Position numbers and translations under genes: made by a program. Below, one piece after another: positions 27,191-37,674 of a stretch of DNA of 64,000 nucleotides. Every line of letters begins with the position of its first letter. Position 1 is the first letter of the stretch. The stretch is taken from sequence record PQ536907.1; one strand, written 5' to 3'. The DNA comes from a phage. The notes below the pieces were generated by a model that was not told the DNA's origin, ran no database searches, and worked only from the letters and a program-made list of their open reading frames with translations.

Positions 27191-30100
27191 ATGGCCGAGA
27201 TTAAAAGAAAGTTCAGAGCAGAAGACGGTCTGGACGCAGGTGGTGATAAAATAATCAACGTAGCTTTAGCTGATCGTACCGTAGGAACTGACGGTGTTAA
27301 CGTTGATTACTTAATTCAAGAAAACACAGTTCAACAATACGATCCAACTCGTGGATATTTAAAAGATTTTGTAATCATTTATGATAACCGCTTTTGGGCT
27401 GCTATAAATGATATTCCAAAACCGGCAGGAGCTTTTAATAGCGGACGCTGGAGAGCATTACGTACCGATGCTAACTGGATTACGGTTTCATCTGGTTCAT
27501 ATCAATTAAAATCTGGTGAAGCTATTTCGGTTAACACCGCAGCTGGTAATGATATTACATTTACTTTACCATCTACCCCAATTGATGGTGATACTATCGT
27601 TCTCCAAGATATTGGAGGAAAACCTGGAGTTAACCAAGTTTTAATTGTAGCTCCGGTGCAAAGTATTGTAAACTTCAGAGGTCAACAAGTACGTTCAGTA
27701 CTAATGACTCATCCAAAATCGCAGATAGTTTTAATTTTTAGTAATCGTCTGTGGCAAATGTATGTTGCTGATTATAGTAGAGAAGCTGTAGTTGTAACAC
27801 CAGCAAGTCTCTATCAGGCGCAATCTAATGATTTTATCGTACGTAGATTTACTTCTGCTGCACCAATTAATGTTAAACTTCCAAGATTTGCTAATCATGG
27901 CGATATTATTAATTTCGTTGATTTAGATAAACTGAATCCACTTTATCATACAATTGTTACTACATACGATGAAACGACTTCAGTACAAGAAGTTGGAACT
28001 CATTCCATTGAAGGCCGTACATCAATTGACGGTTTCTTGATGTTTGATGATAATGAGAAATTGTGGAGATTGTTTGACGGGGATAGTAAAGCACGTTTAC
28101 GCATTATAACGACTAATTCTAATATTCGTCCAAACGAAGAAGTCATGGTATTTGGTGCGAATAACGGAACAACTCAAACAATTGAGCTTCAGCTTCCAAC
28201 TAATATTTCTGTTGGTGATACTGTTAAAATTTCCATGAATTACATGAGAAAAGGACAAACAGTTAAAATCAAAGCTGCGGGCGAAGATAAAATTGCTTCT
28301 TCAGTTCAATTACTGCAATTCCCAAAACGCTCAGAATATCCACCTGAAGCTGAATGGGTTACAGTTCAAGAATTAGTTTTTAACGGTGAAACTAATTATG
28401 TTCCAGTTTTACAACTTGCTTATATAGAAGATTCTGATGGAAAATACTGGGTTGTACAGCAAAACGTTCCAACTGTAGAAAGAGTTGATTCTTTAAATGA
28501 TTCTACTAGAGCAAGATTAGGCGTAATTGCTTTAGCTACACAAGCTCAAGCTAATGTCGATTTAGAAAATTCTCCACAAAAAGAATTAGCAATTACTCCA
28601 GAAACATTAGCTAACCGTACTGCTACTGAAACTCGCAGAGGTATTGCAAGAATAGCAACTACTGCTCAAGTGAATCAGAACACCACATTCTCTTTTGCAG
28701 ATGACCTTATCATTACTCCTAAAAAGCTGAATGAAAGAACTGCTACAGAAACTCGTAGAGGTGTTGCTGAAATTGCTACGCAGCAAGAAACTAATGCAGG
28801 AACCGATGATACTACAATCATCACTCCTAAAAAGCTTCAAGCTCGCCAAGGTTCTGAATCATTATCTGGTATTGTAACTTTTGTATCTACTGCAGGTGCT
28901 ACTCCGGCTTCTAGCCGCGAATTAAATGGTACCAACGTTTATAATAAAAACACTAATAATTTAGTTGTTTCACCTAAAGCTTTGGATCAGTATAAAGCTA
29001 CTCCAACGCAACAAGGTGCAGTAATTTTAGCAGTTGAAAGTGAAGTAATTGCTGGACAGAGTCAAGAAGGATGGGCAAATGCTGTTGTAACGCCAGAAAC
29101 GTTACATAAAAAGACATCAACTGATGGAAGAATTGGTTTAATTGAAATTGCTACGCAAAGTGAAGTTAATACAGGAACTGATTATACTCGTGCAGTCACT
29201 CCTAAAACTTTAAATGACCGTAGAGCAACTGAAAGTTTAAGTGGTATAGCTGAAATTGCTACACAAATTGAATTCGACGCAGGCGTCGACGATACTCGTA
29301 TCTCTACACCATTAAAAATTAAAACCAGATTTAATAGTACTGATCGTACTTCTGTTGTTGCTCTATCTGGATTAGTTGAATCAGGAACTCTCTGGGACCA
29401 TTATACCCTTAATATTCTTGAAGCAAATGAGACACAGCGTGGTACACTTCGTGTAGCTACACAGGTCGAAGCTGCTGCAGGAACATTAGATAATGTTTTA
29501 ATAACTCCTAAAAAGCTTTTAGGTACTAAATCTACCGAATCACAGGAAGGTGTTATTAAAGTTGCAACTCAGTCTGAAACTGTGACTGGAACGTCAGCAA
29601 ATACTGCTGTATCTCCAAAAAATTTAAAATGGATTGTGCAGAGTGAACCTACCTGGGCAGCTACTACTGCGATAAGAGGTTTTGTTAAAACTTCATCTGG
29701 TTCAATTACATTCGTTGGTAATGATACAGTCGGTTCTACCCAAGATTTAGAACTGTATGAGAAAAATAGCTATGCAGTATCACCATATGAATTAAACCGT
29801 GTATTAGCAAATTATTTGCCGTTAAAAGCAAAAGCTGTAGATAGTAATTTATTGGATGGTCTAGATTCATCTCAGTTCATTCGTAGGGATATTGCACAGA
29901 CGGTTAATGGTTCACTAACCTTAACCCAACAAACGAATCTGAGTGCCCCTCTTGTATCATCTAGTACTGCTGCGTTTGGTGGTTCAGTTTCGGCAAATAG
30001 TACATTAACTATTTCTAATACTGGAACGGCAACTCGTCTGATTTTTGAGAAAGGACCTCAAACTGGAACTAACCCAGCACAGACGATGACTATTAGAGTT

Positions 30101-31060
30101 TGGGGAAATCAGTTTGGCGGCGGTTCAGATACAACACGTTCTACTGTATTTGAAGTTGGTGATGAAACGTCTAGTCATTTTTATTCCCAGCGCAATAAAG
30201 CTGGAAATATAACATTTAATATCAACGGTACAGTAACACCGATAAATGTGAATGCTTCAGGCACATTGACTGCGAATGGTGTAGCAACATTCGGTAGTTC
30301 AGTCACAGCAACTGGTGAAATTATATCTCGAAACGCAAATGCTTTCCGTGCTATTAACGGAAATTATGGTTTCATTGTTCGCAATGATGGGTCAGTAACG
30401 AATTTTATGCTTACTGCATCTGGTGATCAGACCGGTGGATTTAATGGATTACGTCCATTATCAATTAATAATCAATCCGGTCAAGTCACAATTGGTGAAA
30501 GCTTAATCATTGCCAAAGGTGCTACTATAAATTCAGGTGGTTTGACTGTTAACTCGAGAATTCGTTCTCAGGGTACTAAAACATCTGATTTATATACCCG
30601 TGCGCCAACATCTGATACTGTAGGATTCTGGTCAATCGATATTAACGATTCAGCCACTTATAACCAGTTCCCAGGTTATTTTAAAATGGTTGAAAAAACT
30701 AATGAAGTGACTGGGCTTCCATACTTAGAACGTGGCGAAGAAGTTAAATCTCCTGGTACACTGACTCAGTTTGGTAACACACTTGATTCGCTTTACCAAG
30801 ATTGGATTACTTATCCAACGACACCAGAAGCGCGTACCACTCGTTGGACACGTACATGGCAGAAAACCAAAAACTCTTGGTCAAGTTTTGTTCAGGTATT
30901 TGACGGAGGTAACCCTCCTCAGCCGTCTGATATCGGTGCTTTACCATCTGATAATGCTACAATGGGGAATCTTACTATTCGTGATTTCTTACGAATTGGT
31001 AATGTTCGCATTATTCCTGACCCAGTGAATAAAACGGTTAAATTTGAATGGGTTGAATAA
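27191..31060 (+). CDS. 34: gp34 long tail fibre proximal subunit
   Basis: 1289 aa; matches recalled T4 gp34; internal ~38-aa tandem repeats. Confidence 0.95.
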   Translation: MAEIKRKFRAEDGLDAGGDKIINVALADRTVGTDGVNVDYLIQENTVQQYDPTRGYLKDFVIIYDNRFWAAINDIPKPAGAFNSGRWRALRTDANWITVSSGSYQLKSGEAISVNTAAGNDITFTLPSTPIDGDTIVLQDIGGKPGVNQVLIVAPVQSIVNFRGQQVRSVLMTHPKSQIVLIFSNRLWQMYVADYSREAVVVTPASLYQAQSNDFIVRRFTSAAPINVKLPRFANHGDIINFVDLDKLNPLYHTIVTTYDETTSVQEVGTHSIEGRTSIDGFLMFDDNEKLWRLFDGDSKARLRIITTNSNIRPNEEVMVFGANNGTTQTIELQLPTNISVGDTVKISMNYMRKGQTVKIKAAGEDKIASSVQLLQFPKRSEYPPEAEWVTVQELVFNGETNYVPVLQLAYIEDSDGKYWVVQQNVPTVERVDSLNDSTRARLGVIALATQAQANVDLENSPQKELAITPETLANRTATETRRGIARIATTAQVNQNTTFSFADDLIITPKKLNERTATETRRGVAEIATQQETNAGTDDTTIITPKKLQARQGSESLSGIVTFVSTAGATPASSRELNGTNVYNKNTNNLVVSPKALDQYKATPTQQGAVILAVESEVIAGQSQEGWANAVVTPETLHKKTSTDGRIGLIEIATQSEVNTGTDYTRAVTPKTLNDRRATESLSGIAEIATQIEFDAGVDDTRISTPLKIKTRFNSTDRTSVVALSGLVESGTLWDHYTLNILEANETQRGTLRVATQVEAAAGTLDNVLITPKKLLGTKSTESQEGVIKVATQSETVTGTSANTAVSPKNLKWIVQSEPTWAATTAIRGFVKTSSGSITFVGNDTVGSTQDLELYEKNSYAVSPYELNRVLANYLPLKAKAVDSNLLDGLDSSQFIRRDIAQTVNGSLTLTQQTNLSAPLVSSSTAAFGGSVSANSTLTISNTGTATRLIFEKGPQTGTNPAQTMTIRVWGNQFGGGSDTTRSTVFEVGDETSSHFYSQRNKAGNITFNINGTVTPINVNASGTLTANGVATFGSSVTATGEIISRNANAFRAINGNYGFIVRNDGSVTNFMLTASGDQTGGFNGLRPLSINNQSGQVTIGESLIIAKGATINSGGLTVNSRIRSQGTKTSDLYTRAPTSDTVGFWSIDINDSATYNQFPGYFKMVEKTNEVTGLPYLERGEEVKSPGTLTQFGNTLDSLYQDWITYPTTPEARTTRWTRTWQKTKNSWSSFVQVFDGGNPPQPSDIGALPSDNATMGNLTIRDFLRIGNVRIIPDPVNKTVKFEWVE
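28590..29630 (+). repeat. Tandem ~38-aa coding repeats within gp34 (TPKKL..R.ATE...G...IATQ.E...GTD.T.I)
   Basis: About eight consecutive repeat units visible in the translation. Confidence 0.6.
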
Positions 31061-31068
31061 GAGGTATT

Positions 31069-32184
31069 ATGGAAAAATTTATGGCAGAGTTTGGACAAGG
31101 ATATGTCCAAACGCCATTTTTATCGGAAAGTAATTCAGTAAGATACAAAATAAGTATAGCGGGTTCTTGCCCGCTTTCTACAGCAGGACCATACGTTAAA
31201 TTTCAGGATAATCCTGTAGGAAGTCAAACATTTAGCGCAGGCCTTCATTTAAGAGTTTTTGACCCTTCCACAGGAGCATTAGTTGATAGTAAGTCATATG
31301 CTTTTTCGACTTCAAATGATACTACATCAGCTGCTTTTGTTAGTTTCATGAATTCTTTGACGAATAATCGAATTGTTGCTATATTAACTAACGGAAAGGT
31401 TAATTTTCCTCCTGAAGTAGTATCTTGGTTAAGAACCGCCGGAACGTCTGCCTTTCCATCTGATTCTATATTGTCAAGATTTGACGTATCATATGCTGCT
31501 TTTTACACTTCTTCTAAACGAGCTATTGCATTAGAACATGTTAAACTGAGTAATAGAAAAAGCACAGATGATTATCAAACTATTTTAGATGTTGTATTTG
31601 ACAGTTTAGAAGATGTCGGAGCTACCGGGTTTCCAAGAAGAACGTATGAAAGCGTTGAGCAATTTATGTCAGCGGTTGGTGGAACTAATAACGAAATTGT
31701 GAGATTGCCAACTTCAGCTGCTATAAGTAAACTCTCTGATTATAATTTAATTCCTGGTGATGTTCTTTATCTTAAAGCACAGCTATATGCTGATGCTGAT
31801 TTACTTGCACTTGGAACTACAAATATATCTATCCGTTTTTATAATGCATCTAATGGATATATTTCCTCGACACAAGCTGAGTTTACTGGGCAAGCTGGGT
31901 CATGGGAATTAAAGGAAGATTATGTAGTTGTTCCAGAAAACGCAGTAGGATTTACGATATATGCACAAAGAACTGCACAAGCTGGCCAAGGCGGCATGAG
32001 AAATTTAAGCTTTTCTGAAGTATCAAGAAACGGCGGCATTTCGAAACCTGCTGAATTTGGCGTCAATGGTATTCGTGTTAATTATATCTGTGAATCCGCT
32101 TCACCTCCGGATATAATGGTACTTCCTACGCAAGCATCGTCTAAAACTGGTAAAGTGTTTGGACAAGAATTTAGAGAAGTTTAA
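31069..32184 (+). CDS. 35: gp35 long tail fibre hinge protein
   Basis: 371 aa; SD GAGG 8 nt upstream; translationally coupled to 34. Confidence 0.9.
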   Translation: MEKFMAEFGQGYVQTPFLSESNSVRYKISIAGSCPLSTAGPYVKFQDNPVGSQTFSAGLHLRVFDPSTGALVDSKSYAFSTSNDTTSAAFVSFMNSLTNNRIVAILTNGKVNFPPEVVSWLRTAGTSAFPSDSILSRFDVSYAAFYTSSKRAIALEHVKLSNRKSTDDYQTILDVVFDSLEDVGATGFPRRTYESVEQFMSAVGGTNNEIVRLPTSAAISKLSDYNLIPGDVLYLKAQLYADADLLALGTTNISIRFYNASNGYISSTQAEFTGQAGSWELKEDYVVVPENAVGFTIYAQRTAQAGQGGMRNLSFSEVSRNGGISKPAEFGVNGIRVNYICESASPPDIMVLPTQASSKTGKVFGQEFREV

Positions 32185-32189
32185 ATTGA

Positions 32190-32213
32190 GGGAGCCTTCG
32201 GGTTCCCTTTTTC
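32190..32213 (+). terminator. Rho-independent terminator after gene 35
   Basis: Hairpin gggagcc-ttcg-ggttccc followed by TTTTTCTTT. Confidence 0.6.
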
Positions 32214-32215
32214 TT

Positions 32216-32223
32216 TATAAATA
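32216..32223 (+). promoter_or_regulatory. T4 late promoter TATAAATACTATT for gene 36
   Basis: Exact TATAAATA 24 nt upstream of the gene 36 ATG. Confidence 0.7.
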
Positions 32224-32246
32224 CTATTAAAATAAAGGGGCATACA

Positions 32247-32912
32247 ATGGCTGATTTAAAAGTAGGTTCAACAACCGGAGGCTCTGTCATTTGGCATCAA
32301 GGAAATTTTCCATTGAATCCAGCCGGTGACGATGTACTCTATAAATCATTTAAAATATATTCAGAATATAATAAACCACAAGCTGCTGATAACGATTTCG
32401 TTTCTAAAGCTAATGGTGGTACTTATGCATCAAAGGTAACATTTAACGGCGGTGTTCAAATACCATATGCTATAAACAATACAAATCAATCTGGTATTTA
32501 TCCTGGTAATGGAGATGCAGCTACTTTTGCTACAGCAAATATTGATATTGTTTCATGGTATGGTATTGGTTTTAAATCATCACAGGGTTCAGCAGCCAGA
32601 ACTGTAGTAATCAATACACGTAATGGTGATATTAGTACAAAAGGTGTTGTATCCGCTGCAGGTCAAGTAAGAAGTGATATGCCGACGCCAATTGCGGCGA
32701 ATGACCTTACTAGAAAGGACTATGTTGATGGAGCAATAAATACTGTTACAGCAAATGCGAACTCTAGAGTGTTGCGTTCTGGCGACACTATGACAGGTAA
32801 TTTAACCGCGCCAAACTTTTTCTCGCAGAATCCCGCATCTCAACCTTCACATGTTCCACGATTTGACCAAATCGTAATTAAGGATTCTGTTCAAGATTTC
32901 GGCTATTATTAA
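32247..32912 (+). CDS. 36: gp36 long tail fibre distal connector
   Basis: 221 aa; position between 35 and 37. Confidence 0.9.
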
Positions 32913-32920
32913 GAGGACTT

Positions 32921-35900
32921 ATGGCTACTTTAAAACAAATACAATTTAAAAGAAGCAAAACCGCAGGTGCACGTCCTGCTGCTTCAGTATTAGCCGAAGG
33001 TGAATTGGCTATAAACTTAAAAGATAGAACACTTTTTACTAAAGATGATACAGGAAATATCATTGATTTAAGTATTTCCGCTGGCGGTAATATCAGTGGA
33101 AATATCACTCAAACTGGTGATTATTTACAAAATGGAACATATAATCTTAATGGAAACCAGTTTGTTTATGCTGGTAAATATATTGAATTCCTGCCTAAAA
33201 CCGCGGGTAATGGTGCTTGGGCAAACCAACATAAAAATAAAGCTCCTATCTTTACCGATTTGAGTTCAACTACTTCTACTTCAGAATACCATCCGCTAAT
33301 TAAACAACGCTATAAAGATGGAACTTTTTCTGTTGGTACGTTAGTAAATGAAGGAAGTTTTAAAATTCAATATATCAATGAATCTGGTGATTCAAAATAT
33401 TGGACTTTTAATCGAAACGGTAGTTTTATTGTAGATAATGGCAATATTAAAGTTCGTGCTGGTAATATTTCCGCTTCAGGCAATATTAATTCAGCTACTG
33501 GGATGGTTTCTGCTCCACAGATTAATACAAAAACCATAGTTTTTAATACAAAAGCATTCGGACAATATGATTCGCAGTCATTAGTTCAATATGTTTATCC
33601 TGGAACAGGTGAAACAAACGGAATCAATTACCTTCGCAAATTCCGTGCTAAATCTGGTGGTACAATTTATCATGAATTAGCTTCTGCGCAAACCGGAAAA
33701 AGTGATGAACTTTCTTGGTGGACTGGTAATACAGCGGTTAATAAACAAATGGGCCTTCGCAATGATGGGTCTTTAGTACTACGACGTTCACTTGCAATTG
33801 GTACAATTACAACAGATGAAAACATCAATAACTACGGTTCCACTGGAGCAATGGGCAAATGTTATATAGTTATCGGTGATGCATCAACGGGTTTATCATA
33901 CAAAAAAACTGGGGTATATGACTTAGTTGCTAGTGGTCTTTCTGTAGCATCTATTACTCCTGATAGTTTCCGTAGTACGCGCAAAGCGATTTTTGGACGC
34001 TCGGAAGACCAAGGTGGTACGTGGATTCTTCCTGGTCAAAACGCAGCTCTTCTTTCAGTTCATACTGAAGTTGACCAAAACAATAATGGAGATGGTCAGA
34101 CACATATTGGCTATAATAGTAATGGTAAATTTTATCATTATTTTAGAGGCAGAGGAAGAATGGCCATTGGAATGGCCGAAGGACTTATTGTTGAACCAGG
34201 AATTTTAGATATTAAAACTGGTTCAAATACATTAAGTTTGCGTGCTGATGGTACCGTCGCTTCTGTTCAAACATTAAAGCTTAATAATGGATTATATTTT
34301 AATAGTGATGGAACTAACGCTTCTCTAATTTTTAAAGCAGCTTCAGGTATTGATGGTACTAAACAAATACTTTGGGAAGGTGGTACTCGTGCTGGGCAGA
34401 ATAAGAGCTATGTAACTGCTAAAGCTTGGGGAAATTCATTTAATTCATCTGGCGATCGTAATCGTGAAACGGTTTTTGAAGTATCAGATGGACAAGGATA
34501 TTATTTTTATGCTCAACGTGTAGCTCCTGCACCAGGTTCAACAACTGGAGTAGTTCAATTTAGAGTTGCTGGAGCATTATTAACTTCTGGTGGCATTACA
34601 TCATCCGGTTCTATTGTTACTGAATCTAGTTTAGTTGCTAATAATGGATTATCTGTAAATGGTCAAGCTAAATTTGGTGGAACAGCAGATGCATTAAGAA
34701 TTTGGAATGCTGAATACGGCGCAATTTTCCGTCGTTCAGAAGCATCATTACATATTATCCCGACTCCTAAAGATGCTGGTGAAAGTGGTGGAATAAGTAA
34801 TCTCCGCCCGCTAAGTATTAGTCTTAATAATGGTATGGTACAAATGCGCCATTCTGTTACGTTAGGCGATGATGGCACTGGCGGTAATATGATTACTGTG
34901 GACAACGATAACAAACGTGTTGTTGTTGCTAGTAATAGTCGTATTGCTCCTAATTTCAGAATGCAATTAGGACAATCATCTTATATTGATGTAGAATGTA
35001 CTGATGCTGCTCGCCCAGCCGGTGCAGGTTCATTTGCATCCCAGAATGACGCAAACGTAAGAGCTCCAATTTATATGAATATAGAGCGTACTGCTGCTTC
35101 TGAATATATTCCAATTGTTAAACAGCGGTATGTAAATGGTGATAGTACTTATTCTATTGGCACCTTAATTTCTCAAGGAGACTTTCGCGTTCATTATCAC
35201 CAGGGTACTAGTACTACCGGTACTGATTTAAGCTGGGAATTCCGTCGCAATGGTGATTTCCGCGCGGCAGGTAAAATTATTGCCGGTGCTGCTACTTTTG
35301 GCACTGATGGTAATATTACTGGTGGTTCAGGAAACTTTGCCAACTTAAACAGCACAATTGAATCACTTAAAACTGATATTGTTTCAAGTTATCCTATTGG
35401 GGCTCCTATTCCATGGCCAACGGATACTCCTCCTGACGGTTACGCTATTATGGAAGGCCAGACCTTTGATAAGTCTGCGTATCCAAAGCTAGCTGTTGCA
35501 TATCCTAGTGGCGTTATTCCGGATATGCGCGGGCAAACTATTAAAGGTAAACCGAGTGGTCGTAATGTATTAAGCGCGGAAGCTGATGGTATTAAGTCTC
35601 ATACCCATGGAGCATCTGCATCCAATACAGATTTAGGTACTAAAACTACATCAAGCTTTGATTATGGCACTAAGACCTCTTCAAGTTTTGACTATGGTAC
35701 TAAAACCAGTAATACCACAGGTAACCACTCTCATACTGTAAGCGGTACTACGAGTTCTGCTGGTGCACACCAACATGCGCGCTCAGGTCCTCAGTTACAA
35801 GCCGGCATACCCAATAACATATTCTATGACGGATATAATACTGTAGGTGCAAACGCCAACGCTAAAATCACCGGATCTGTGAGCGGTGCTACTGCAGGGT

Positions 35901-36145
35901 CAAATATAGCCAAAACTTCTTCAGACGGTGCTCATACTCATACTTGGTCTGGTACTACAAGCACTACAGGTAACCATGCTCACACAGTAGGTATTGGTGC
36001 TCATACCCATACTGTAGGTATCGGTGCTCATACCCACACGGTAGCAATTGGCTCGCATGGTCATACTATCACTGTAAATAGTACAGGTAATACAGAAAAC
36101 ACGGTTAAAAACATCGCTTTTAACTATATCGTTCGTTTAGCATAA
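32921..36145 (+). CDS. 37: gp37 long tail fibre distal subunit (receptor-binding tip)
   Basis: 1074 aa; C-terminus ...[11 protein letters not shown]; His-box repeats [14 protein letters not shown]; T4-type, with the chaperone gp38 downstream. Confidence 0.9.
35597..36075 (+). repeat. His-rich repeat region of gp37 tip (HxH boxes; GTKT.SSFDY and GAHTHTVGI tandem repeats)
   Basis: Direct nucleotide and amino-acid tandem repeats in the C-terminal domain. Confidence 0.6.
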
Positions 36146-36172
36146 GGAGAGGGGCTTCGGCCCCTTCTGAAC
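36145..36172 (+). promoter_or_regulatory. Gene 38 translation-initiation region: SD AGGAGA separated from ATG by a GC hairpin (split ribosome-binding site)
   Basis: aggaga-ggggcttcggcccc-ttctgaacATG; the hairpin would bring SD and ATG to normal effective spacing. Confidence 0.5.
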
Positions 36173-36724
36173 ATGAAAATTTATCATTATTATTTTGACA
36201 CTAAAGAATTTTATAAAGAAGAAAATTATAAACCAATTAAAGGATTAGGTCTTCCTGCACATTCAACAACTAAAAAACCTTTAGAACCTAAAGAAGGATA
36301 TGCGGTTGTATTTGATGAAAGAATTCAAGATTGGATTTATGAAGAAGACCATCGCGGCAAACGAGCATGGACTTTTAATAAAGAAGAAATTTTTATAAGT
36401 GACATTGGAAGCCCGGTTGGTATAACCTTTGATGAGCCCGGCGAATTTGATATATGGACTGATGACGGTTGGAAAGAAGACGAAACATATAAACGCGTTT
36501 TAATTCGCAATAGAAAAATTGAAGAATTATACAAAGAATTCCAAGTTTTAAATAATATGATTGAAGCTTCTGTCGCGAATAAAAAGGAAAAATTCTATTA
36601 TAAAAACCTTAAGCGGTTCTTTGCTCTTTTAGAAAAGCATGAGCATTTAGGTGGTGAATTCCCTTCATGGCCTGAAAAAGAACGGAAACCTTGGTATAAG
36701 CGTTTATTCAAGCATTACGTATAA
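36173..36724 (+). CDS. 38: gp38 tail fibre assembly chaperone (T4-type)
   Basis: 183 aa, MKIYHYYFDTKEFYKEENYKPIKGLGL... matches recalled T4 gp38. Confidence 0.9.
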   Translation: MKIYHYYFDTKEFYKEENYKPIKGLGLPAHSTTKKPLEPKEGYAVVFDERIQDWIYEEDHRGKRAWTFNKEEIFISDIGSPVGITFDEPGEFDIWTDDGWKEDETYKRVLIRNRKIEELYKEFQVLNNMIEASVANKKEKFYYKNLKRFFALLEKHEHLGGEFPSWPEKERKPWYKRLFKHYV

Positions 36725-36727
36725 ATA
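36720..36727 (+). promoter_or_regulatory. T4 late promoter TATAAATA for holin gene t (overlaps gene 38 stop)
   Basis: TATAAATA 17 nt upstream of SD AAGGAGG and the t ATG. Confidence 0.6.
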
Positions 36728-36744
36728 TCTTAAAAGGAGGGTCT

Positions 36745-37401
36745 ATGGCAGCACCTAGAATATCATTTTCGCCCTCTGATATTCTATTTGGTGTTCTAGA
36801 TCGCTTGTTCAAAGATAACGCTACTGGGAAAGTTCTTGCTTCCCGGGTAGCTGTCGTAATTCTTTTATTTATGATGGCGATTGTTTGGTATAGGGGAGAT
36901 AGTTTCTTTGAGTACTATAAGCAATCAAAGTATGAAACATACAGTGAAATTATTGAAAAGGAAAGAAATGCACGCTTTGAATCTGTCGCCCTGGAACAAC
37001 TCCAGATAGTTCATATATCATCTGAGGCAGACTTTAGTGCGGTGTATTCTTTCCGCCCTAAAAACTTAAACTATTTTGTTGATATTATAGCATACGAAGG
37101 AAGATTACCTTCAACAATAACTGAAAAATCACTTGGAGGATATCCTGTTGATAAAACTATGGATGAATATATAGTTCATTTAAATGGACGTCATTATTAT
37201 TCTGACTCAAAATTTGCTTTTTTACCAACTAAAAAGCCTACTCCCGAAATAAACTACATGTACAGTTGTCCATATTTTAATTTGGATAATATCTATGCTG
37301 GAACGATAACCATGTACTGGTATAGAAATGATCATATAAGTAATGACCGCCTTGAATCAATATGCGCTCAGGCGGCCAGAATATTAGGAAGGGCTAAATA
37401 A
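36745..37401 (+). CDS. t: holin
   Basis: 218 aa; single N-terminal TM segment (VAVVILLFMMAIVWY) and large periplasmic domain; matches recalled T4 holin T. Confidence 0.9.
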   Translation: MAAPRISFSPSDILFGVLDRLFKDNATGKVLASRVAVVILLFMMAIVWYRGDSFFEYYKQSKYETYSEIIEKERNARFESVALEQLQIVHISSEADFSAVYSFRPKNLNYFVDIIAYEGRLPSTITEKSLGGYPVDKTMDEYIVHLNGRHYYSDSKFAFLPTKKPTPEINYMYSCPYFNLDNIYAGTITMYWYRNDHISNDRLESICAQAARILGRAK

Positions 37402-37674
37402 TTATTTGTTCGTATACATCTCTAGATATCGATATACACCCTCAAAACCCTCGTTGAATTCGTCGATGAGGGTTTTCTTATCTTCTTGAGTTAATTCAGA
37501 AACAATTTTACGGAATGAATTCTGATTTAATTTTCTACCTTCATGCGTTACTCCAATCTCATTCAGAAATGCAATAAAATTAGCACGATTCTCAACAATA
37601 TCTTCTCTGGAAAATTTAATCAAAATAGACGCAACAGTAATAATTTCACGAACTGTATCAATGTTTTTATTCAT
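37402..37674 (-). CDS. asiA: AsiA anti-sigma70 factor
   Basis: 90 aa, MNKNIDTVREIITVASILIKFSREDIVENRANFIAFLNEIGVT... Confidence 0.9.
   Translation of the reverse strand: MNKNIDTVREIITVASILIKFSREDIVENRANFIAFLNEIGVTHEGRKLNQNSFRKIVSELTQEDKKTLIDEFNEGFEGVYRYLEMYTNK

Follow-up and report, generated by a model that had tools for sequence, protein, structure and literature searches.

The C-terminal region of gp37, the long tail fibre distal subunit of the phage in record PQ536907.1, carries short tandem repeats and histidine boxes of the form HxH. A first-pass annotation of the window, the 64,000-nt stretch of this record that we analysed, proposed that repeat-mediated variation had altered the receptor-binding region relative to T4. 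The question raised by this locus is what the repeats are and whether they bear on host recognition. Our analysis indicates that the flagged stretch very probably codes for needle plus head of a gp37 tip of the T4 type, in the TuIb/PhiZZ30 allele, and that the repeats are matched layers of the needle, of which there is one more than in T4.

Anatomy of the gp37 tip

The annotation long tail fibre distal subunit is given to the matching protein in hundreds of Tequatrovirus records; the exact 1074-aa sequence was absent from a collection of 15 billion proteins. In a phmmer comparison, gp37 matched the solved T4 gp37 tip (PDB 2XGF, 2xgf_A) with E=1.4e-93 (query 797-1074 to chain 2-242), and the homology spans the whole length of the solved tip. 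The gp34-like shaft repeats were also matched by gp37. The only Pfam domain found in gp37 was the tail collar domain, which precedes the needle; the fibre-repeat model PF03335 stayed above the threshold of E<=0.01. PF03335 is listed for many homologues. Neither the reading frame nor the conserved C-terminus is disrupted. In a scan of 32000-37600, promoter and terminator sites were no more numerous than in shuffled sequence. Directly downstream, gene 38 encodes a protein with 98% identity to both T4 gp38 and TuIb gp38, which matches PHROG 105 (tail fibre assembly, E=2e-44) and is thus of the T4 type, as first annotated. Judged from these homologies, gp37 appears to end in a receptor-binding tip of the T4 gp37 type, composed of collar, needle and head (Table 1).

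Table 1. Features of gene 37, its tip and the adjoining gene 38, in positions of the window.
Feature	Position	Strand	Residues or description	Basis
Gene 37, long tail fibre distal subunit	32921..36145	+	1074 aa plus stop	ORF list
PhiZZ30-like block	34773..36357	+	2 mismatches in ~1585 nt	mismatch map, BLAST segments, binned identity
Phage tail collar domain PF07484	35399..35542	+	aa 827-874	Pfam; 43.8 bits, cut-off 24, E=2.4e-11
HxH 1 (HTH)	35600..35608	+	aa 894-896; collar end of outgoing needle strand	motif positions
Two 10-aa GTKTxSSFDY units	35636..35695	+	aa 906-925, outgoing strand; T4 has one	
GTKTSNTT linker, one 14-aa unit (HxH 2) and GAHQH (HxH 3)	35696..35776	+	end of outgoing strand	
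Head (putative receptor-contact) segment, TuIb type	35777..35926	+	aa 953-1002	T4 comparison
Returning 14-aa unit (HxH 4)	35927..35968	+	partner of outgoing 14-aa unit	HxH spacings
Four 9-aa GxHxHTVxI units (HxH 5-8)	35969..36076	+	aa 1017-1052, returning strand; T4 has three	
Conserved C-terminal end	36077..36142	+	22 aa, identical in T4	
Gene 38, T4-type tail-fibre assembly chaperone	36173..36724	+	183 aa, directly downstream of gene 37	

Eight HxH motifs were found in gp37, at aa 894, 936, 950, 1005, 1019, 1028, 1037 and 1046, compared to seven in T4. Both needle strands, outgoing and returning, carry them at quantised spacings, and they are followed by the conserved C-terminal end, which lies a fixed 29 aa past the last HxH in T4, gp37 and nearly all homologues. 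The spacings are 42 and 14 aa on the outgoing strand (HxH 1 to 2 and 2 to 3), 55 aa across the head (HxH 3 to 4) and 14, 9, 9 and 9 aa on the returning strand; the corresponding values in T4 are 32 and 14, 37, and 14, 9 and 9 aa. HxH 1 is invariant across all aligned homologues. The flagged stretch, 35597-36075 (aa 893-1052), runs from the first to the last HxH of the needle. Two tandem arrays were detected within it by Tandem Repeats Finder as well as in the translation, as the first-pass annotation had described: one at 35639-35707 (period 30, 2.3 copies, 79% matches), inside a 25-aa repeat stretch at aa 906-930 (nt 35636-35710), and one at 35981-36044 (period 27, 2.4 copies, 86% matches).

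The T4 tip contains seven Fe ions and seven di-His motifs; its chain doubles back at the head to give a six-stranded needle, and the number of di-His motifs has been suggested to scale with needle length (PMC6957217, PMC12609058). These reports bear out the assignment of the HxH boxes to metal binding. By analogy, each chain of the gp37 trimer would run from collar to head and then double back, and we infer a six-stranded beta needle with one iron ion held at each level by a set of three HxH motifs. The outgoing 10-aa units and the returning 9-aa units would then be two halves of the same layers. With one layer more than T4 (two outgoing units versus one, four returning units versus three, eight HxH versus seven), the needle is predicted to hold eight metal sites and to be roughly 2-3 nm longer. 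The tip would be an obligate intertwined trimer, for which an AlphaFold2 monomer model of the 281 aa, made with a 39-sequence alignment (mean pLDDT 47.8, pTM 0.18), is uninformative.

A known tip allele on a mosaic fibre

T4 gene 37 (NC_000866) is 3081 nt long and encodes 1026 aa, so that gp37 is a net 48 aa longer, in line with the first-pass annotation. Alignment to T4 placed indels of +10, +15, +3 and +9 aa in the tip and likewise upheld the difference in repeat number. The 48 residues are made up of one GTKTxSSFDY unit (+10), one GAHTHTVGI unit (+9), the head (+18) and a net +11 from indels in the shaft. The two repeats thus account for only 19 of the 48 extra residues, and they lie in the needle stem, outside the part that in T4 contacts receptors. 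For these reasons and others given below, the earlier wording, repeat-mediated variation in the receptor-binding region, is unsupported as it stands. The tips of T4 and gp37 share their fold family, the collar, an identical C-terminal 40 aa, the HxH logic and a gp38 chaperone. In contrast, T4 has one needle layer and one HxH fewer, and its head is shorter by 18 aa and unrelated to that of gp37, with almost zero identity.

To other phages the tip is closely related. The last 281 aa of gp37 are 100% identical to those of Serratia phage PhiZZ30 (846 nt, 99.9%, one mismatch), and the tip shares 96% of its amino acids with TuIb and 88% with TuIa; all three alignments are without indels. The match to the TuIb gp37 C-terminus (X55191) extends over 267 aa and includes two GTKTxSSFDY units and four 9-aa HxH units; substitutions in TuIb are few and fall near the collar and in the head, where they number two. 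The head of PhiZZ30 is identical to that of gp37, and TuIa (X55190) has equal unit counts. For TuIb, PMC6957217 and PMC9659904 cite Montag, Hashemolhosseini and Henning (J Mol Biol 1990); the paper cited for X55190 and X55191 dates from that year. A tip at least 80% identical occurs in 122 phage records, and 57 of the best 60 protein-level phage matches share the tip length of 843 nt. On amino acid identity (at least 95%), gap-free alignment, layer number and head, the gp37 tip can be assigned to the TuIb/PhiZZ30 allele. This allele is long known; it is neither new nor an unstable repeat expansion. The description of the tip as expanded thus holds as far as it has more units than T4, but the counts are those of an old and widespread allele, found alike in PhiZZ30, TuIa and TuIb.

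The remainder of the fibre has a different affinity. The gp37 of PhiZZ30 (MT176426 / NC_054938, annotated as host-recognition protein, 1070 aa) has the same tip and unit counts, whereas its N-terminal ~615 aa are of another type, and overall protein identity is 77%. The PhiZZ30-like block spans aa ~618-1074 of gp37 and extends ~60 codons into gene 38. By binned identity, the 3' 1.4 kb of gene 37 is 99-100% identical to PhiZZ30, and the 5' part is mostly 89-99% identical to Escherichia phage ECP2301, with one 150-nt bin at 76%. This pattern indicates cassette recombination, and a swap of the whole tip cassette is the best explanation of a tip unlike that of T4. The old allele probably reached this genome as a ~1.6-kb cassette that carried the start of gene 38 with it.

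Covariation of the two repeat arrays

We compared needle architecture in ~270 homologous tips, which are phylogenetically related and represent far fewer independent events than sequences. With one exception, the number of outgoing 10-aa units equalled the number of returning 9-aa HxH units minus two. Expressed as spacings, tips whose first HxH spacing is 32 aa have two 9-aa spacings; there are three where it is 41/42, four at 52, five at 62 and six at 73. Every parsed homologue had as many 14-aa units on the outgoing strand as on the returning one. The rule was obeyed by all 115 homologues parsed from the 90% clusters. Of the 126 representatives parsed at 50% identity, 123 conformed directly and the remaining three on manual reading, and 33 of 34 distinct IMG/VR tips conformed as well; about nine distinct architecture classes were represented. 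Units were parsed by HxH spacings; a search by FDY regular expression gave apparent off-rule classes that proved to be the variant units FNH, FDH and APDL. The same quantised architecture is found in the Stf fibres of lambdoid prophages of E. coli and Shigella, which are grouped with T4 gp37 in the "T4- and lambda-based RBP family" (PMC9659904). Their C-terminal ~215-280 aa are 55-88% identical to gp37; unlike gp37, they have unrelated N-terminal parts and a Tfa-type chaperone, and they differ among themselves in head and in number of layers (5 to 10 HxH).

The exception, L007 (IMGVR_UViG_3300030021_000020), is a metagenome contig 92% identical to TuIa. It has two outgoing but only three returning units, being short of precisely one 27-nt unit that would lie between near-identical direct repeats. 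Either a mismatch between the strands is tolerated in L007 or the assembly collapsed one unit. Together with the published T4 fold, the covariation indicates that the 10-aa and 9-aa repeats of gp37 belong to a single matched layer of the six-stranded needle and are not two independent expansions. A strict covariation rule was not found stated in the literature examined, although the 2010 T4 structure paper may already state it.

Origin of the repeats and receptor specificity

A recent lineage-specific expansion, in which slippage or unequal crossing-over in 27-30-nt units added copies and changed the host range, would leave tandem units like those seen here, which have exact stretches of up to ~14 nt (GGTGCTCATACCCA) in common; the missing 27-nt unit of L007 suggests that slippage-type changes may occur. 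Host-range duplications in T4 gene 37, consisting of tandem copies of a variable segment bounded by His boxes, were reportedly described by Tetart et al. (J Mol Biol 1996). The gp37 tip does not have this form: it contains a single head segment within one 55-aa HxH-free gap, and its extra units are conserved needle units. A recent origin is also difficult to reconcile with the sequence of the units, which are only 70-86% identical in DNA with synonymous differences at about half of their codons, a divergence that points to an old duplication. Moreover, PhiZZ30, TuIa and TuIb agree with gp37 in unit number, tip length is the same among the matches listed, and independent slippage would not yield two arrays that co-vary family-wide. 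We consider a recent expansion very improbable. A hypermutable, contingency-type repeat was likewise rejected, since the units are not near-identical (79% and 86% matches in the two arrays, 70-94% identity between units) and copy number is the same in PhiZZ30, TuIa and TuIb, L007 being the single deviant. Assemblers can miscount short tandem repeats, and L007 may itself contain a collapsed unit, so the extra units could in principle have been mis-assembled from a gene with T4-like counts. That they were is scarcely credible, because the 846 nt recur in the independent PhiZZ30 genome with a single mismatch, the Sanger-era TuIa and TuIb sequences carry equal counts, the units are short, diverged and well inside read length, and the counts fit the matched-layer rule in an intact frame.

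The repeats might instead serve as receptor-binding modules that contact sugars or porins along the needle, each extra unit adding a site. The region of T4 described as receptor-recognising, 907-996 (Montag et al. 1990, as quoted in PMC9659904), takes in part of the needle, and needle length might affect reach through the LPS. However, alanine scanning placed the T4 contacts with LPS and OmpC in head residues 933-953, outside the repeats, and the tip histidines are required for folding and iron binding (PMC6957217); this also argues against an expansion of the repeats as a cause of altered host range. Across phages that use OmpC, OmpF, LamB or LPS, little of the tip is as well conserved as the repeat units, and the head is hypervariable. 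A receptor-binding role for the repeats is accordingly given little credence. Most likely, specificity is set by the TuIb-type head, which would direct the phage to OmpC and possibly LamB: the known receptors are OmpC for T4, OmpF for TuIa and OmpC/LamB for TuIb (PMC9659904), and in the BASEL preprint, receptor-binding proteins with the T4-type C-terminal extension belong to OmpC-targeting phages. The recorded host of PhiZZ30, whose tip is identical, is Serratia, and specificity may be broader or different.

This tip, an allele already on record for the most thoroughly studied phage adhesin, has little discovery value in itself; TuIb and PhiZZ30 can supply its annotation and a guess at the receptor (OmpC, possibly LamB). 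The matched-layer rule can serve as a quick test of whether repeats were miscounted when a tail-fibre gene was assembled, and it constrains the design of chimeric fibres, in which needle layers would have to be added or removed on both strands. A more speculative reading, which we regard as rather unlikely, is that the needle is a length-quantised module that grows or shrinks only by matched 10-aa/9-aa or 14-aa/14-aa pairs and whose length (5-10 iron layers) is an adaptive reach; if so, needle length, eight iron layers here, would tune the reach of the head through LPS or O-antigen to the porin. The PhiZZ30-identical block, with its sharp boundaries, provides a clean case in which Tequatroviruses have exchanged a tip cassette and, along with it, the first part of the chaperone gene.

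The tail-fibre gene block and the mosaic gene 37

The window's ORF list places a cluster of T4-type long-tail-fibre genes on the + strand (see table). Residues 797-1074 of the 1074-aa product, gp37, match the solved T4 gp37 tip (PDB 2XGF; E=1.4e-93), with a collar domain inside this region and gp34-type shaft repeats matched upstream of it. The exact gp37 sequence was absent from a 15-billion-protein collection, and an AlphaFold2 monomer model of the tip was unusable (pLDDT 47.8). The next ORF encodes a protein that is 98% identical both to T4 gp38 and to gp38 of phage TuIb and matches a PHROG of tail-fibre assembly, consistent with the T4-type gp38 called in the first-pass annotation. Many Tequatrovirus genomes (e.g. 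R5505, AdolfPortmann, teqdroes and vB_Eco_Some) share about 95-97% identity with the 25 kb surrounding gene 37. Two short ORFs with TTG starts, on the opposite strand of gene 37 and in another frame of gene 34, are most likely chance ORFs without support.

Features of the tail-fibre region
Feature	Position	Strand	Remark
gp34	27191-31060	+
85-aa ORF	30771-31028	+	within gene 34
gp35	31069-32184	+
gp36	32247-32912	+
gp37	32921-36145	+	1074 aa
Collar domain of gp37	aa 827-874		PF07484, phage tail collar
Head segment of gp37	aa 953-1002
83-aa ORF	34663-34914	-	within gene 37
PhiZZ30-like block	34773-36357		~1585 nt
Intergenic region 37/38	36143-36175
Hairpin	36151-36164		UUCG loop
gp38	36173-36724	+	183 aa
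Holin t	36745-37401	+

Binned identities and a mismatch map showed that gene 37 is mosaic. From 32921 to about 34720 its identity to Escherichia phage ECP2301 is for the most part 89-99%, apart from a single 150-nt bin (33371-33520) at 76%. ECP2301 encodes a gp37 of 1293 aa and, separately, a gp38 adhesin of 264 aa. The window gene thus joins a T4-style tip to a shaft that otherwise occurs with a T2/T6-style fibre end. The following block has just two mismatches to Serratia phage PhiZZ30, at 34877 and 36022. It spans gp37 residues ~618-1074 (the C-terminal ~457 aa) and extends roughly 60 codons into gene 38. Downstream of it the identity to PhiZZ30 drops to about 97%, and the upstream stretch 33104-34348 gave no megablast-level match to that phage. 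From these sequence comparisons, the block looks like a tip-plus-chaperone cassette that was exchanged by recombination, recently by appearance. Such an exchange would fit the shuffling by recombination at conserved motifs that PMC3157838 quotes from Tetart et al. 1996/1998.

Between genes 37 and 38, a Shine-Dalgarno-like AAGGAG precedes the ATG of gene 38 by about 23 nt, and a hairpin (GGGGCUUCGGCCCC) separates the two. PhiZZ30 and TuIb have this region conserved, and the T4 stem is one C short. The arrangement matches the 'split ribosome-binding site' known from T4 gene 38. Its fold z-score was only -1.65.

Needle repeats and the matched-layer rule

The repeats noticed in the first pass were found where it had placed them, a 25-residue repeat at aa 906-930 and a 36-residue repeat at aa 1017-1052, and Tandem Repeats Finder called both as arrays (period 30, 2.3 copies; period 27, 2.4 copies). 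T4 gene 37 (NC_000866) is 3081 nt, or 1026 aa, and the claimed 48-residue difference is therefore right. Alignment to T4 gp37 also bore out the differing unit numbers, with one additional GTKTxSSFDY unit (+10 aa) on the outgoing strand of the needle and one additional GAHTHTVGI unit (+9 aa) on the returning strand. The repeats thus explain 19 of the 48 extra residues; the head segment gained 15 and 3 aa, and several gains (e.g. one of 11 aa) and losses in the shaft amount to a net +11 aa. The needle has eight HxH motifs (aa 894, 936, 950, 1005, 1019, 1028, 1037 and 1046) compared to seven in T4. Their proposed role in metal binding agrees with the T4 structure, in which seven di-His motifs are the ligands of seven iron ions in a six-stranded needle formed by the chain doubling back at the head; the number of motifs may scale with needle length (PMC6957217, PMC12609058).

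Each tip was coded as the list of spacings between consecutive HxH motifs, in which the first spacing includes the 10-aa outgoing units and the trailing 9s are returning HxH units. T4 reads [32, 14 / head 37 / 14, 9, 9] and the window [42, 14 / head 55 / 14, 9, 9, 9]. Across homologues the first spacing was locked to the number of 9s (two at 32, three at 41/42, four at 52, five at 62, six at 73), and 14-aa units were equal in number before and after the head in all (0/0, 1/1 or 2/2; 12/12 in one protein). This matched-layer rule was obeyed in 115/115 parsed representatives of 90%-identity clusters, in 33 of 34 distinct IMG/VR viral-contig tips, and directly in 123/126 representatives at 50% identity, the other three (two with a degenerate second HxH, one with two tandem tips) fitting by manual reading; these sequences are related, so the independent events are far fewer than roughly 270. 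One outgoing 10-aa unit and one returning 9-aa unit would make up one needle layer, and the window needle would be that of T4 plus one layer. The tip would then have eight metal sites, and beta-strand geometry suggests a needle roughly 2-3 nm longer.

About nine architecture classes were seen, with 5 to 10 HxH motifs per chain. The sole unmatched combination was in IMG/VR contig L007 (IMGVR_UViG_3300030021_000020, 1501-2310), whose tip resembles that of phage TuIa (92% nt identity) and has two outgoing 10-aa units and only three returning 9-aa units. It lacks exactly one 27-nt unit at a gap flanked by near-identical direct repeats; the unit was either truly deleted by slippage or lost when the repeat collapsed in metagenome assembly. 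The extremes among homologues (P0164, P0216, P0067 and P0263) include needles with five or six returning 9-aa spacings, matched by first spacings of 62 and 73 aa, respectively, needles in which two 14-aa units both precede and follow the head, and a protein in which the units before and after the head are 12 aa long. The tandem-tip protein, P0121 (938 aa, a 50%-identity representative), has two complete collar-needle-head tips with HxH spacings of [32,14,324,32,14,51,14,9,9]. This may reflect the fusion or duplication of a receptor-binding tip, or else an artefact of read-through or annotation.

Age and spread of the tip allele

The last 281 aa of gp37 are 100% identical to PhiZZ30 (846 nt, 99.9%), and 96% and 88% identical, with zero indels, to TuIb (X55191) and TuIa (X55190), sequences attributed to Montag et al. 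1990. TuIb and TuIa consequently share the two 10-aa and four 9-aa units. In 122 phage records the tip protein has 80% identity or more, and 57 of the best 60 rows among them share the exact 843-nt tip length; the other three are the TuIb record, which is truncated, and a phage recorded twice whose match starts at residue 3. Such tips correspond to the 'T4- and lambda-based' receptor-binding family, in which conserved flanks enclose a specificity segment of 30-70 aa (PMC9659904). DNA identity between repeat units is 70-86%, with synonymous differences at 5/9 same-residue codons of the two GTK units and at 3/8 of those of the second and third HxH units. Judged from this divergence, the duplication is old and maintained by selection on the protein, and fresh slippage is not its source.

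A recent expansion of the repeats is contradicted by this known, widespread allele with its old, synonymously diverged units, and by the locking together of outgoing and returning unit numbers. The repeat-driven variation proposed in the first-pass annotation was an over-reading of an old, common allele. That the extra units arose in assembly is contradicted by identical sequences from independent sources and by window counts that fit the matched-layer rule.

Head segment and receptor

In T4, head residues 933-953 carry the LPS and OmpC contacts, and the histidines are required for iron binding and folding (PMC6957217). This mutational map contradicts the idea that the repeats act as binding sites, as does the conservation of the repeats, with a variable head, across phages with different receptors. 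The window head segment is unrelated to T4, has two substitutions relative to TuIb and is identical to PhiZZ30. T4 uses OmpC, TuIa OmpF and TuIb OmpC/LamB (PMC9659904), and OmpC-targeting phages are associated with T4-type C-terminal-extension adhesins (BASEL preprint). From the similarity of the tips, this receptor list and the association, we predict that the primary receptor is OmpC, possibly with LamB. PhiZZ30, with its identical tip, has Serratia sp. ATCC 39006 as recorded host, and heterologous LamB expression was reportedly used in a PhiZZ30-related study. The feature itself is already known, and the explicit matched-layer rule for the tip family is the sole, mildly new by-product.
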